From the NCBI GenBank assembly GCA_019058275.1, contig JAHLVW010000024.1, forward strand, positions 1 to 20,136: 20,136 nt of DNA. Direction: 5' to 3'. This DNA comes from Candidatus Heimdallarchaeota archaeon. Lineage in GTDB: Archaea > Asgardarchaeota > Heimdallarchaeia > JABLTI01. Made by a program: the position numbers and the translations under genes. Below the pieces are notes generated by a model. The model saw only the letters and a list, made by a program, of their open reading frames with translations. It did not search any database and was not told the DNA's origin. Below are positions 11,624-15,758 of this stretch, in pieces. Each line of letters begins with the position of its first letter. Position 1 is the first letter of the stretch.

Positions 11624-14600
11624 TCACTTTTTGCTTTTCACTAGTTTTAAGTGCAGTTTCATTCCTTGGATAGTTATTATCTCAGTGTTCTTTATACTAC
11701 TTATCAATTCCATTTTTGTTGTCAAAGTTTCAGTACAGATATAGTCTGAGAATTCTGTAAATGCCTTCTTTAGATCTTCACTTGCTTTATAGTAGACTTC
11801 TATTTGGTCATTTACATTCAAATCCAGTTTTTTCCTGAGATTTTGTATATGTCTAACTATATCTCGAGCTATTCCTTCAAGAAGCAATTTCTCAGAGATT
11901 TTTGTATTTAATGCTATGGCAAATCTATGATTGACAGCTATTGTATGAGTTCCTTTTGGTTGAACATCTAAATCTAGATCCTGGTTCAATCTCAGTTTCA
12001 TAGGTTTCATTTCAGGTGTTAATTGTACTTCAAGTAACTGTTCTGAATTATTGTATGCTTCAAAGATTACTTTTTGATTTAGTGTTTTCATCTTATCTTC
12101 AAGAAGCTTTATACGTCCTTTCAATTTTGGACCCAATAATTGATAGTTAGGTTTTAGTTTAAATGTCAAGAGTTTCTCTGGGTTTCTAACGAATCTTAGT
12201 TTTTTTACATTAAGCTCTGTTAATAACTCCATCTCGAATTCTTTCAACACCTTTTCGTTCTCTGTGTTCTTACACCATATGATAACTTCTTCAAGTGGTT
12301 GTCTCAATCTTAAATCAACTTTACTCCTAGCTGCTCTACCTAATTTTACAACCTCAAGTACATCATCCATTTTTTCATTCAATTCTTTTTTCAGGAGTTT
12401 CTTCGTCGATTTTGGATAATTACATAGATGAACACTCATGGGTAGATTTGAATCGAGGTTTTTTGTTAAGTTCTGATACAATAGTTCACCAAAGAAAGGA
12501 GCTATTGGAGCTATTAGTTTACTCATTGTTAGCAATACTGAGTATAGCGTTTCATAACCACTAAGTTTCTCTTCACTATTTTCATGTTTCCAAAATCTTC
12601 TTCTGCTTCTTCGTAAATACCAAGTGGAAAGCAATTCTACAAATTCTTCAAGTTCTAGCACTGTTTTTCTAAAATCCGCTTTATCCAGATATTTACGAAC
12701 TTGTTTAACAAGTAGGTTTAGTCTCGAGAGTAACCACTCATCAAGCAAAGGTCGTGTTCCTTTGGTTAGTTTTTGTTTTGGTTTAAACTGATCTAAATTA
12801 GCAAATGTAGCAAAGAATGAATAAACATTCCATAGTGTGAGAAAGAATTGCTTTAGCTCTTTTACTAAATGGTATCCAAAGTGCATTGTTTGTGTTAATT
12901 GCTGTTTAGCAAATGCCCATCGTAATAAATCTGCACCCATCTTATCTACTGCTTCTTCAAACCATATGGCATTTCCCAAGCTTCTGTGCATAGCTCTACC
13001 ATTTTTGTCATGAACCTTCTCGTGAGCAATTACTCTTTTGTATGGAGCTTTTCCAGTAAGGGTTACTCCCATAAAGAGCAGAGAATAGAACCACAATCTT
13101 ATTTGTTCTCTCATTTCACATATGGATTCTGCTGGGAACCATTTTTCCCAATAGGATGAATCTTCTAAGTATTTTAAAGTGGAAAAGGGAACTATGCCAG
13201 CATCTAACCAGCAATCTCCAACTTCCTGTACTTTAGTTACCTTTTTCCCACATTTAGGGCATTCTATTTGTACATCATCTATCCATGGACGATGCAATTC
13301 CTGTAAATTCTCGAGACCACTTACTGCTTTTTCAAAAAGCTCATCTTTTGATCCTATTACAATTAATTGTCCACAATGTTTGCATTCAAAGAATGGTAAT
13401 GGTAATCCCCAATATCTTTTTCTTGAGATACACCAATTTCCCATATTGTTTAACCAATCTTGCATACGCTTTTCATAAAAGCTGGGTTTCCATTCGACTT
13501 CACCAGTTGCTTTCTTCAGTAGTGGTCGTATTTCTTCACAGTCTATGAACCATTCTTCAACTAATCTAAAAACTAGTTCTTCATGGCATCTCCAACATGT
13601 AGGATATCTATGAGTAAATTCTTCTGTTTTATAAGACAAACCTGATTCCTCAAGCTTATTGAGAACAAGAGTTGAAACATCGGATACAAATACTCCTCCA
13701 AATTCATCATATTCTTTACCAAATATTCCGAATTCATCAATTGGTGATAAGACAGCTAATTTGAAGATTTTACTTAACTCAAAATCCTCTGCACCACATC
13801 CTGGAGCAATATGTACAAAACCTGTACCTTCTTCACCAGATACCTCTACCCATTCAATGACTTTATGGTCTACTCCTTTTTGAGCTGTTAAGTAGTTGAA
13901 AGGTGAATCATACTTCAAAGCAACTAGTTCTTTTCCAGGTAATACCTCTTGAACCTCAAATTCACCTACTAATAATGAAAGTTTACTTTCAACAACATAA
14001 TATACCTCATTTTTTTGCAGCACTTTACAGTAAGTTAAATCGGGATTAACTGCTACAGCTGTGTTTGCAGTAAGAGTCCATGGGGTTGTAGTCCAAACTA
14101 GTAAATTTGTTTTTGGTTGATTGTGTTTCTTAGTTTTTATTGGAAACTTCACAAAAACTGCTGTATGGCTAAGCTCTTTATAAGCATCATGTTGTTCATG
14201 TTGTGATAAAGATGTACCGCATCTAGAACACCATGGCATAGGGAAGTGACCTTTAACTATCCACCCTTTTTCATGGCAGGTTTTAAGAAAATACCAGATA
14301 TAAGAGATATTTGTATCAGTGTGAGTATAGTAGGAATTATCCCAATCCATGAACTGACCAAGTCTTTTGGATTGTTCGATTATTAGACCTGAAAAATGAT
14401 TCAATCTTTCCTTACATTTATTGGAAAAATTTTCCAAGCCATAATCTTCTATTGCTTTTTTGGAATTCAGTCCGAGTTCTTTTTCGACTTCAACTTCTAT
14501 CCAGAGACCTTGACAATCAAATCCATTTTGAAATCTTTGATCATATCCTTTCATTGCCCAATAGCGTTGTATTAAATCCTTTAGTGAACGACCCCAAGCA

Positions 14601-14830
14601 TGATGTAAACCCATTGGATTGTTTGCAGTTATAGGTCCATCTATGAAAGAATAATGCTTGTTTGAGTTTCGGTTTAATTCAACCCTCTGTTCAAAAACTT
14701 TGTTTACTTCCCAAAATTTCAATATCTCTTTCTCATGTTCAATTAAATCTAAGTTTGAACTAACTTCTGGAAATAGAAGCTCTTTTTTATTATTTATTTG
14801 CTTTTTATTGGTTTTAGTTTCGAATTTCAT
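11624..14830 (-). CDS. ileS: Isoleucyl-tRNA synthetase, type 2-like, with non-canonical signature motifs
   Basis: FIDGPITAN, GFDCQGL, CP1 editing motif VWTTTPWTL, GTGFVHIAPG, HRYPTCWRC, WCISRKRYWGLPLP, WYLRRSRRRFW, and a type-2-like C-terminus (EGIARDIVRHIQNLRK). GAGGA SD upstream. Confidence 0.97.
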   Translation of the reverse strand: MKFETKTNKKQINNKKELLFPEVSSNLDLIEHEKEILKFWEVNKVFEQRVELNRNSNKHYSFIDGPITANNPMGLHHAWGRSLKDLIQRYWAMKGYDQRFQNGFDCQGLWIEVEVEKELGLNSKKAIEDYGLENFSNKCKERLNHFSGLIIEQSKRLGQFMDWDNSYYTHTDTNISYIWYFLKTCHEKGWIVKGHFPMPWCSRCGTSLSQHEQHDAYKELSHTAVFVKFPIKTKKHNQPKTNLLVWTTTPWTLTANTAVAVNPDLTYCKVLQKNEVYYVVESKLSLLVGEFEVQEVLPGKELVALKYDSPFNYLTAQKGVDHKVIEWVEVSGEEGTGFVHIAPGCGAEDFELSKIFKLAVLSPIDEFGIFGKEYDEFGGVFVSDVSTLVLNKLEESGLSYKTEEFTHRYPTCWRCHEELVFRLVEEWFIDCEEIRPLLKKATGEVEWKPSFYEKRMQDWLNNMGNWCISRKRYWGLPLPFFECKHCGQLIVIGSKDELFEKAVSGLENLQELHRPWIDDVQIECPKCGKKVTKVQEVGDCWLDAGIVPFSTLKYLEDSSYWEKWFPAESICEMREQIRLWFYSLLFMGVTLTGKAPYKRVIAHEKVHDKNGRAMHRSLGNAIWFEEAVDKMGADLLRWAFAKQQLTQTMHFGYHLVKELKQFFLTLWNVYSFFATFANLDQFKPKQKLTKGTRPLLDEWLLSRLNLLVKQVRKYLDKADFRKTVLELEEFVELLSTWYLRRSRRRFWKHENSEEKLSGYETLYSVLLTMSKLIAPIAPFFGELLYQNLTKNLDSNLPMSVHLCNYPKSTKKLLKKELNEKMDDVLEVVKLGRAARSKVDLRLRQPLEEVIIWCKNTENEKVLKEFEMELLTELNVKKLRFVRNPEKLLTFKLKPNYQLLGPKLKGRIKLLEDKMKTLNQKVIFEAYNNSEQLLEVQLTPEMKPMKLRLNQDLDLDVQPKGTHTIAVNHRFAIALNTKISEKLLLEGIARDIVRHIQNLRKKLDLNVNDQIEVYYKASEDLKKAFTEFSDYICTETLTTKMELISSIKNTEIITIQGMKLHLKLVKSKK

Positions 14831-14944
14831 GATTCCTCATTTTAATTTGTACTCCTAAAATTAGAATAAAAATGAATATAGTATACACTAGGTGAAATGT
14901 AGAATAGGTGACTATTGCTGGGATATAATTTCATGATCCCTCAT
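14823..14944 (-). repeat. Direct repeat of the ileS RBS + start cassette (17/18 nt identical, 104 bp apart)
   Basis: Minus strand ATGAGGGATCATGAAATT (14944-14927) versus ATGAGGAATCATGAAATT (14840-14823). Confidence 0.85.
14912..14944 (-). other. Candidate leader peptide MRDHEIISQQ upstream of ileS
   Basis: GGTGA SD, 4-nt spacer, then ATG AGG GAT CAT GAA ATT ATA TCC CAG CAA TAG with tandem Ile codons. Translation is unproven. Confidence 0.35.
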
Positions 14945-14988
14945 GTTTTCACCATTGTTTTATATTCAATTGACTTTTCCGATGAAAA

Positions 14989-14996
14989 TTTATAAG
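14989..14996 (-). promoter_or_regulatory. Probable TATA box of ileS
   Basis: Minus strand GAAAGCCTTATAAAT (purine-rich BRE-like element + CTTATAAA), about 160 nt upstream of the ileS ATG, implying a long leader. Confidence 0.45.
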
Positions 14997-15072
14997 GCTT
15001 TCTAAAAGACATTTATTAGTAATATCCGTTCAGATCTAAGCTTTTTTATCGAAAATTCTCCATTAGTCTTAT

Positions 15073-15144
15073 CGAAACCTTTTATAAATCATTTATAAGC
15101 GTTCATTTATAAATAATCATTTATAAAGGAAAACTGTTTATAAA
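15073..15144 (+). promoter_or_regulatory. tbp promoter region with an array of five TATA boxes
   Basis: TTTATAA(A) at 15081, 15092, 15106, 15120 and 15137. TCATTTATAA is repeated exactly at 15089, 15103 and 15117. BRE-like CGAAAC precedes the first box. SD AGGAG at 15168-15172. Confidence 0.8.
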
Positions 15145-15182
15145 TAAACCTTAACAAACCCCTTATCAGGAGATCAAAACCC

Positions 15183-15758
15183 ATGGTTAAAATTGAATAT
15201 ACTATTCAAAACTGTGTAGCTTCAGGGAGCGTAGAAACCTCCAGAATAGACCTATATGCACTTGCAGATCGATTAGGTGAGAAACCAGAATATTTTGTAT
15301 CTTACGAACCTGAAAAATTCCCTGGGTTAGTACTAAAAATTCCAAAACCAAAAGTTAGTTCCTTGATTTTTGCCTCTGGTAAAATGGTTATTACTGGAGC
15401 AAAAAGCGCTGAAATGTTGCATGTAGCTGCTGATGAGATTGTCAAAGTCTTAAAAGCTGCTGGTGCTAAAATCACTGGTAAACCATCAGTAACAGTTCAA
15501 AATATCGTTGCTTCTGGAAACATAAATGCAATAATCAATCTTGAGTTAGCTTCAATTATGCTTGAGGGTAGCATGTATGAACCTGAACAATTCCCAGGTC
15601 TAATCTATCGTATTAGAGAACCAAAAACTGTTCTATTGCTATTCCAGAGTGGTGCCTTTGTTTGCACAGGTGCAAAGAAAGAGGAATTTGTTAGTGAATC
15701 CACAAGAAAAACTTACGAGATTCTTAAGGAAGTGGGTGCTTTAGAGGAAGAATTTTAA
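15183..15758 (+). CDS. tbp: TATA-box-binding protein (archaeal TBP)
   Basis: Two TBP repeats: IQNCVAS...YEPEKFPGL...LIFASGKMVITGAKS and VQNIVAS...YEPEQFPGLIYR...LLFQSGAFVCTGAK; short acidic tail. Confidence 0.98.
   Translation: MVKIEYTIQNCVASGSVETSRIDLYALADRLGEKPEYFVSYEPEKFPGLVLKIPKPKVSSLIFASGKMVITGAKSAEMLHVAADEIVKVLKAAGAKITGKPSVTVQNIVASGNINAIINLELASIMLEGSMYEPEQFPGLIYRIREPKTVLLLFQSGAFVCTGAKKEEFVSESTRKTYEILKEVGALEEEF

Follow-up and report, generated by a model that had tools for sequence, protein, structure and literature searches.

A 64-bp stretch in front of the only gene for the TATA-binding protein (TBP) in a Candidatus Heimdallarchaeota archaeon is, judged by its conservation among relatives, composed of five consensus TBP recognition sites (core YTTATAAR) under purifying selection. 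With the confidence of an evenly balanced case, we read this array as an autoregulatory module of the sole tbp gene that would be read by TBP itself. We infer alike the reader, the location of the start site and the sign of the feedback.

The control of the amount of a basal factor that is needed at every promoter is poorly understood in archaea. The array is a compact, strongly selected cis-element made of TBP recognition sites alone, and in these lineages, which lie near the eukaryotic stem, it is tied almost exclusively to tbp. Autoregulation by way of site repeats in the regulatory region of the gene itself is already a known kind of system. The novelty, if the reading is true, would be a TBP that reads bare TATA boxes at its own gene, and this would be the first case of direct autoregulation described for TBP in archaea. 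A literature search with incomplete journal coverage found no description of TATA arrays at tbp. If TBP does read the array, TATA boxes can be regulatory operators besides core promoter elements, and the locus offers a natural system for multi-site TBP binding. The array thereby offers a concrete hypothesis, for whose test recombinant TBP and TFB could be combined with a DNA fragment of 110 bp. It is also a practical marker, as it is often the sole array of its kind in these genomes.

Five conserved TATA boxes upstream of tbp

The window analyzed here is a whole contig (C10) of 20,136 bp from a 4.12-Mb assembly with 32% G+C. It encodes tbp (15183-15758, plus strand), whose 191-aa product contains two repeats of Pfam family PF00352 (E 5.9e-53). 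A six-frame search of the whole genome returned one match, which makes this the sole TBP gene of the assembly. The neighbors of tbp are ileS (11624-14830, minus strand), which is divergent and separated from it by a 352-bp spacer, and a gene encoding a two-domain gelsolin, also within the window.

Direct reading and a pattern search place TTTATAA on the plus strand at 15081, 15092, 15106, 15120 and 15137, and the five boxes lie 46-102 bp upstream of the tbp ATG. Four of them are the 8-bp palindrome TTTATAAA, namely box 1 (15081-15088), box 3 (15106-15113), box 4 (15120-15127) and box 5 (15137-15144), while box 2 (15092-15099) reads TTTATAAG; all are on the plus strand. The sequence TCATTTATAA recurs exactly at 15089, 15103 and 15117, giving a 14-bp period, and TRF reports a repeat at 15087-15127 with period 14 and 2.9 copies. 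A BRE-like CGAAAC (15073-15078, plus strand) stands directly 5′ of box 1 and resembles the CGAAAG found at the TATA boxes of tRNA genes in the same genome. Box 5 is a candidate proximal core promoter, located 32 bp before the Shine-Dalgarno sequence (SD) and 46 bp before the ATG. A conserved leader, CCCTTATCA-GGAG (15160-15182, plus strand, with the SD GGAG at 15169-15172), precedes the start codon. The initial annotation had listed five TTTATAA(A) motifs in 64 bp, with exact repeats at a 14-bp period among the middle boxes, a clean BRE at box 1 and TCA before the middle three. All of these observations are borne out; the period is confirmed by the three exact copies of TCATTTATAA and by TRF, and boxes 2-4 score poorly for a BRE, by an indicative matrix from 19 tRNA promoters, beside the CGAAAC of box 1.

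The upstream region was compared between the focal genome and ten relatives, nine from the same genus and one from a second genus of the same family. Their TBPs are 95-99% identical, the ileS-tbp-gelsolin order is kept in all ten (ileS-tbp synteny in 11/11 genomes), and all ten retain the array. In the resulting alignment (A1; 123 bp, 11 genomes), 25 of the 40 box columns are invariant, including 14/16 in boxes 3 and 4 together, as compared with 6/24 columns in the spacers, 0/39 in the flanks and 1/68 four-fold sites of tbp. Such four-fold sites are 35-53% identical to those of the focal tbp, one near relative excepted, and synonymous sites are near saturation. The start-to-start spacing is kept at 11, 14, 14 (15 in the second genus) and 17-18 bp, and many indels occur downstream of box 5.

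Conservation is not uniform among the boxes. Boxes 3 and 4 are each invariant at 7/8 columns across the 11 genomes, a near-invariant TTCA lies just 5′ of box 3, and the distance between the two is 14 bp in 10/11 genomes (15 bp in the second genus). Box 1 is invariant at 5/8 columns; its variants TTTCAAAA and TTTTAAAA are still TATA-like, and most relatives keep an A-rich RAAAC at its BRE position. Box 5 reads TTTATAAA in eight genomes, CTTATAAA in two and TTTATATA in one, and by alignment it is not recognizable in the second genus. Both box 1, which is linked to the BRE, and box 5, nearest the gene, vary more than boxes 3 and 4. Box 2 is the least conserved of the five (3/8 columns), appearing as TTAATAA, CTAATAA or TTTAAAA in relatives and being lost in one. 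The box variants TTAATAA, TTTAAAA, TTTCAAAA, CTTATAAA and TTTATATA are all TATA-like and therefore fit the degenerate specificity of TBP. Outside the TATA core, CA or TTCA is conserved before boxes 2 and 3. In the leader, 5/17 columns are invariant, with GGAG and the bases around it kept in relatives. Taken as an alignment pattern, the array is clearly a phylogenetic footprint of five separate short sites and not a drifting tandem repeat.

The motif itself is the working promoter element in this genome, because TTTAAAA or TTTATAA with a CGAAAG-like BRE is found at tRNA genes. A recognizable box (TTTAAAA, TTCAAAA or TTTATAA) occurs at 19/24 tRNA genes, 36-46 nt before the mature 5′ end and usually preceded by CGAAAG-like sequence. 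All five array boxes match the TTTAWAW/TTTATAA type of these promoters, and box 1, with CGAAAC followed by TTTTATAAA, resembles them in both elements. A BRE+TATA position weight matrix (PWM), which was built from just 19 tRNA promoters, is register-sensitive and is only indicative, ranks box 1, box 5 and a further, minus-strand box (box 0, discussed below) above boxes 2-4. By the same 19-sequence matrix boxes 2-4 are BRE-poor, and in the focal genome box 5, with a moderate score, is the only plus-strand element to exceed the tRNA-derived threshold. The predicted leader would be 15-18 nt long if box 5 fires, ~33 nt for box 4 and ~73 nt for box 1. TATA-to-SD distances in this genome give a flat histogram that is too noisy to place the start site, and k-mer enrichment upstream of crude gene calls is likewise too noisy for this purpose.

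Rarity of the array and its association with tbp

The focal genome contains 839 TTTATAA per strand and 234 copies of TTTATAAA, and the tbp array is the only locus on either strand of its 4.12 Mb with at least four TTTATAA in 64 bp. The same is true for at least four TTTATA, TTTAWA or TTTAWAW in 64 bp, counted on the plus strand only. One other three-box TTTATAA cluster exists, in a coding repeat of an 864-aa ORF, and the genome's two further triple-TTATAA loci do not amount to consensus TTTATAAA arrays. TTTATAA is missing from 2813 of 3035 crude 200-bp upstream regions; 207 have one box, 14 have two and a single region, that of tbp, has six. No gene theme shared by the other TTTATAA pairs in the genome was found. 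In a first-order Markov simulation of the 352-bp spacer, which used the spacer's own box-rich composition, six boxes were reached in 0/200,000 runs and five in 2/200,000. General avoidance of TTTATAA was considered and is unsupported, as its genome-wide count is 0.97 of the maximal-order Markov expectation. Neither of the two TFB genes in the genome has an array, so the array is not common to basal-factor genes.

These counts extend an early impression that no comparable cluster is found at other promoters in the window, which holds genome-wide across the 3035 upstream regions. The idea of a tbp-specific element was open to two checks, the occurrence of TTTATAA clusters elsewhere in the genome relative to chance and the presence of the array upstream of tbp orthologs in related genomes. 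It survived both: comparable clusters are absent, and the array is present and conserved in the relatives.

Beyond the family, a gene-blind search for three TTATAA cores 2-12 bp apart was run on 41 Heimdallarchaeia genomes, and the loci were then compared with tbp coordinates. It returned 30 distinct loci; 18 of them directly precede tbp, and these come from two families. With the pattern reversed as a control, 69 matches were obtained. The 18 tbp arrays comprise nine in genus g1 and nine in genus g4 (represented by 14 genomes), the latter belonging to a different family with a TBP that is ~57% identical. Thirteen genomes have no triple-TTATAA array other than that at tbp. Genus g4 arrays consist of three boxes ~100-125 bp before the start codon, with a 9-10 bp period and variable spacers. 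In a 201-genome Asgard sample, from which 30 array loci were fetched (one per genome), 14/30 adjoin tbp. Three of those 14 come from a third lineage with a TBP that is 40% identical; its arrays contain three TTTATAAA at an 11-bp period plus one more box and end 40 bp before the start codon (for instance G079, contig 4, 7528-7555). Across lineages the TTATAA core alone is common, whereas flanks and periods differ.

The association has limits. A control search of 151 Thermoprotei genomes gave 30 loci with 1/30 at tbp, which is that of the seed genome itself, from a Desulfurococcaceae clade with four boxes at tbp. No array is present at those tbp genes of Asgard families f7, f13 and f22 that were inspected. 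Among 158 tbp loci from many phyla, a sample that did not include the model Sulfolobales with published start-site maps, four have at least three TTATAA boxes in 64 bp and 21 have at least two. A universal tbp array is therefore rejected on the Thermoprotei result and on families f7, f13 and f22. The link between array and tbp is lineage-specific, because the Thermoprotei control gave 1/30, yet strong. Since the genomes of one lineage are kin, only about three or four events, rather than eighteen, count as independent.

Simpler arrangements are also found at tbp. Other Heimdall families have a conserved two-box design, AAAAGC-TTTTTAAAT followed after ~21 bp by ATATATAAAGGA, which lies ~25 nt before the ATG. 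Two-box loci ~60 bp before tbp occur in family f2 (L012, L018, L023-L025, L036 and L039-L041), where the second box coincides with the expected start site of the first and is also at leaderless distance from the ATG. The tbp upstream sequence of Heimdallarchaeota AB_125 (L036), which belongs to the GTDB class of the focal genome, is identical to that of G028 (L018), another member of this class. Paired TTATAA boxes ~50-70 bp before tbp are present at seven Bathyarchaeia loci (L131, L132, L135, L142, L143, L145 and L151), with a distance of 10 bp (TTATAAGGCTTTATAAGG) or of 12-18 bp (17-18 bp in three loci), and may be a simpler version of the tbp-array theme. One locus, L031 (G009:C14:366527-370099, DATKZI010000014.1), is titled Candidatus Bathyarchaeia; its TBP is 97% identical to the focal protein and its genome falls in the focal genus. 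The title is probably wrong (same class as Heimdallarchaeota AB_125). Similarly, locus L091 is titled Methanobacteriota but encodes a Sulfolobaceae-like TBP.

Other repeats were observed as well. In Asgard family f13, G149 and G196 carry the 26-bp palindromic TTATAAAAATTTATAAATTTTTATAA on many contigs (for example G149:C86:7976-8001), often near contig ends, where it could represent a dispersed repeat or a mobile-element terminus. At G122:C272:3063-3112, TTATAACGAAT is repeated exactly in tandem, with a period of 11 bp and at least five copies.

Possible functions of the array

If TBP reads the array, transcription of tbp would depend on free TBP, unlike that from ordinary one-box promoters. 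At low TBP, five sites would capture the protein better than one, and a pre-initiation complex would assemble in a productive register; the candidates are box 1 together with its BRE, box 5 close to the ATG, or both. At high TBP, the BRE-poor inner boxes would fill too and hinder the recruitment of RNA polymerase (RNAP) or DNA opening. The net outcome would be a concentration-dependent switch as for Ss-LrpB, with feedback that turns from positive to negative as the protein level rises. In the array, box n+2 lies 25, 28 or 31 bp after box n, which is the expected start-site position of box n, so a filled downstream box would sit over the upstream start region.

The distribution of the array also bears on its reader. 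Because only the TTATAA core is common across lineages, the reader would be the universal TBP and not a lineage-specific factor. That such arrays are linked near-exclusively with tbp in several Asgard lineages favors a logic particular to TBP over a promoter that is simply strong, and since the TFB genes and all other upstream regions of the focal genome lack an array, it is unlikely to be a general strong-promoter device. More broadly, TBP may set its own level in several Asgard lineages through an array of its own sites that is productive at single and self-limiting at multiple occupancy. Such arrays would have arisen or been elaborated repeatedly, in Heimdall families f1 and f3, the third Asgard lineage and one Desulfurococcaceae clade. 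This wider proposal, with its repeated origins included, is a tentative one to which we give somewhat less than even credence.

Several known systems offer partial parallels. Ss-LrpB is subject to concentration-dependent autoregulation, which is positive while the protein is scarce and negative once it is abundant (PMC2995911). As in that case, repeated sites occupy the control region of the gene itself, here as five TATA boxes before the sole tbp, with arrays in ten relatives and two further Asgard lineages. However, the presumed reader is the basal factor TBP instead of a dedicated regulator of the Lrp type, and the sites of the array measure 8 bp and recur every 11-18 bp, whereas the Ss-LrpB boxes are 13-15 bp long and two or three helical turns apart. 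LrpA blocks RNAP from a site just downstream of the TATA box (PMC2995911), and by analogy a filled downstream box in the tbp array would occupy a blocking position of this type. In Sulfolobus acidocaldarius, TFB2 is reported to bind its own promoter and to feed back, positively, on its own expression (bioRxiv 10.64898/2026.09.06.749720). TFB2 is likewise a member of a general-transcription-factor family acting on its own gene, which in the case of tbp is proposed only. Unlike the sole TBP considered here, however, TFB2 is a specialized paralog with a cell-cycle regulon, and no site array is described there.

Each array box, taken singly, conforms to the box A/TATA consensus of an ordinary archaeal BRE/TATA promoter, and box 1 has its BRE-like CGAAAC. 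The tbp region differs from such promoters in having five boxes in 64 bp instead of one, three of which lack a good BRE, and in placing boxes at the expected start sites of upstream boxes. Haloarchaeal rRNA operons have tandem promoters, which are complete units >100 bp apart; they share with tbp the repetition of promoter elements before one gene, but a bare TATA-box array is found only in the latter. In Acanthamoeba, the TBP gene is controlled at or near its TATA box by TPBF, a separate factor with its own site. This too is dedicated control of a TBP gene, without a bare TATA-box array.

The initial annotation had proposed that box 1 would fire near 15110 and that excess TBP on boxes 2-5 could block RNAP; the sequence comparisons support this interpretation in part. 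Some observations fit the simplest form of negative feedback less well. Archaeal TBP-DNA complexes are short-lived, lasting 0.18 s in M. jannaschii, and S. acidocaldarius TBP requires TFB and a BRE to bend DNA (PMC5501381). The BRE-poor boxes may accordingly be poorly occupied. A simple roadblock would also fit poorly with the conservation pattern, in that the invariant boxes are 3 and 4 and not the BRE-linked box 1. Box 5 may itself act as proximal promoter, given its position 32 bp ahead of the SD, and this is again a poor fit to a simple roadblock. In genus g4, neighboring TBPs probably cannot bind together at a period of 9-10 bp; given this spacing and the distance of the boxes from the start codon, capture of TBP would fit better there than occlusion.

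Alternatively, the array may work without feedback, as a core promoter of the multi-register or tandem type. Every one of the boxes would nucleate a pre-initiation complex, producing a ladder of starts 11-17 nt apart and robust, high tbp transcription. We consider this unlikely, although it is consistent with the tRNA-promoter type of all five boxes. In another lineage, whose arrays have an 11-bp period, the AAA terminus of a box falls in the place of the next box's A-rich BRE, and the two boxes of other Heimdall families, ~33 bp apart, would fit a leadered plus a leaderless start. Such a promoter would nonetheless be expected at other highly expressed genes, whereas tbp is the only such locus in the focal genome and accounts for 18/30 loci in the 41 genomes; moreover, boxes 2-4 lack a good BRE. 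The boxes are also closer together than the footprint of a pre-initiation complex and so cannot act independently. The archaeal complex spans roughly 60 bp, and independent tandem promoters were rejected on the start-to-start spacing of 11-18 bp, which is far below this span. A multi-register promoter would still give tbp an unusual response to TBP dose and therefore shades into positive autoregulation.

The boxes could instead be operators of a regulator other than TBP, in the form of a small dimeric protein that would bind DNA at TTTATAAA and compete with TBP. Palindromic, regularly spaced and conserved boxes are typical of archaeal operator arrays (PMC2995911), and the CA or TTCA kept before boxes 2 and 3 lies outside the TATA core. 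The motif is, however, the exact TATA consensus and its variants are TATA-like, not half-site-like. Three Asgard lineages and one Desulfurococcaceae clade share the TTATAA core only, with differing flanks and periods, and the locus has no regulator gene beside it, its neighbors being ileS and the gelsolin gene. A separate regulator is therefore improbable.

A role at the level of nucleic-acid structure is more doubtful still. Boxes 3 and 4 (or 4 and 5) could pair as an AU hairpin in a long leader starting from box 1, or as a DNA cruciform, and affect translation or stability. An 8-bp pairing between boxes 3 and 4 is possible in 11/11 genomes, including two in which both boxes read TTTATAAG and G-U pairs preserve it, and the focal RNA fold has z = -1.95. 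Yet any repeat of a palindrome pairs in this way, and the consensus energy is just -2.7 kcal/mol, with only A-U pairs and no compensatory change. No Rfam family reaches threshold; the only match, at chance level, is of a vertebrate lncRNA model to the ileS leader (16.4 bits vs a gathering score of 40). Moreover, pairing leaves the number of five boxes and the 9-11 bp-period arrays of other lineages unexplained, which renders this role highly improbable.

A neutral tandem duplication or a functionless chance AT-rich cluster, for which the 14-bp TRF repeat of 2.9 copies and the three exact TCATTTATAA of the focal genome could speak, retains a negligible chance and is already contradicted by the conservation data, as the spacers diverge (6/24 invariant columns) while the boxes are kept (25/40) at saturated synonymous sites, copy number and spacing are stable among relatives, and no simulation reached the observed box count.

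The ileS side of the spacer

The spacer contains a sixth box, box 0, at 14989 within GAAAA-TTTATAAG-GCTTTC (14984-15003, with no strand assigned), which is conserved in 9/11 genomes. It is near-palindromic, with A-rich BRE-like arms (GAAA/TTTC) on either side of the TATA box, and on the minus strand it has the best BRE+TATA PWM score of the spacer. Box 0 is probably the minus-strand promoter of ileS. It is also a candidate bidirectional promoter, its minus-strand reading, towards ileS, being the best-scoring.

Conserved elements are also present in the ileS leader (window 14826-14960, minus strand). GATTCCTCAT (~14832-14841) and TGATCCCTCAT (~14934-14944), both of them SD-like, are invariant in 11/11 genomes. 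The same is true of GGGATATAATTTC and CACTAGG, while the intervening sequence diverges. Because these invariant copies are located between box 0 and the start of ileS, the gene probably has a conserved, structured leader. The focal IleRS (start at window position 14830) has ~17-19 extra N-terminal residues relative to its tblastn matches in relatives. Several relatives have no ATG after the conserved GAGGAATC, and the ileS start codon may vary by species or be miscalled.
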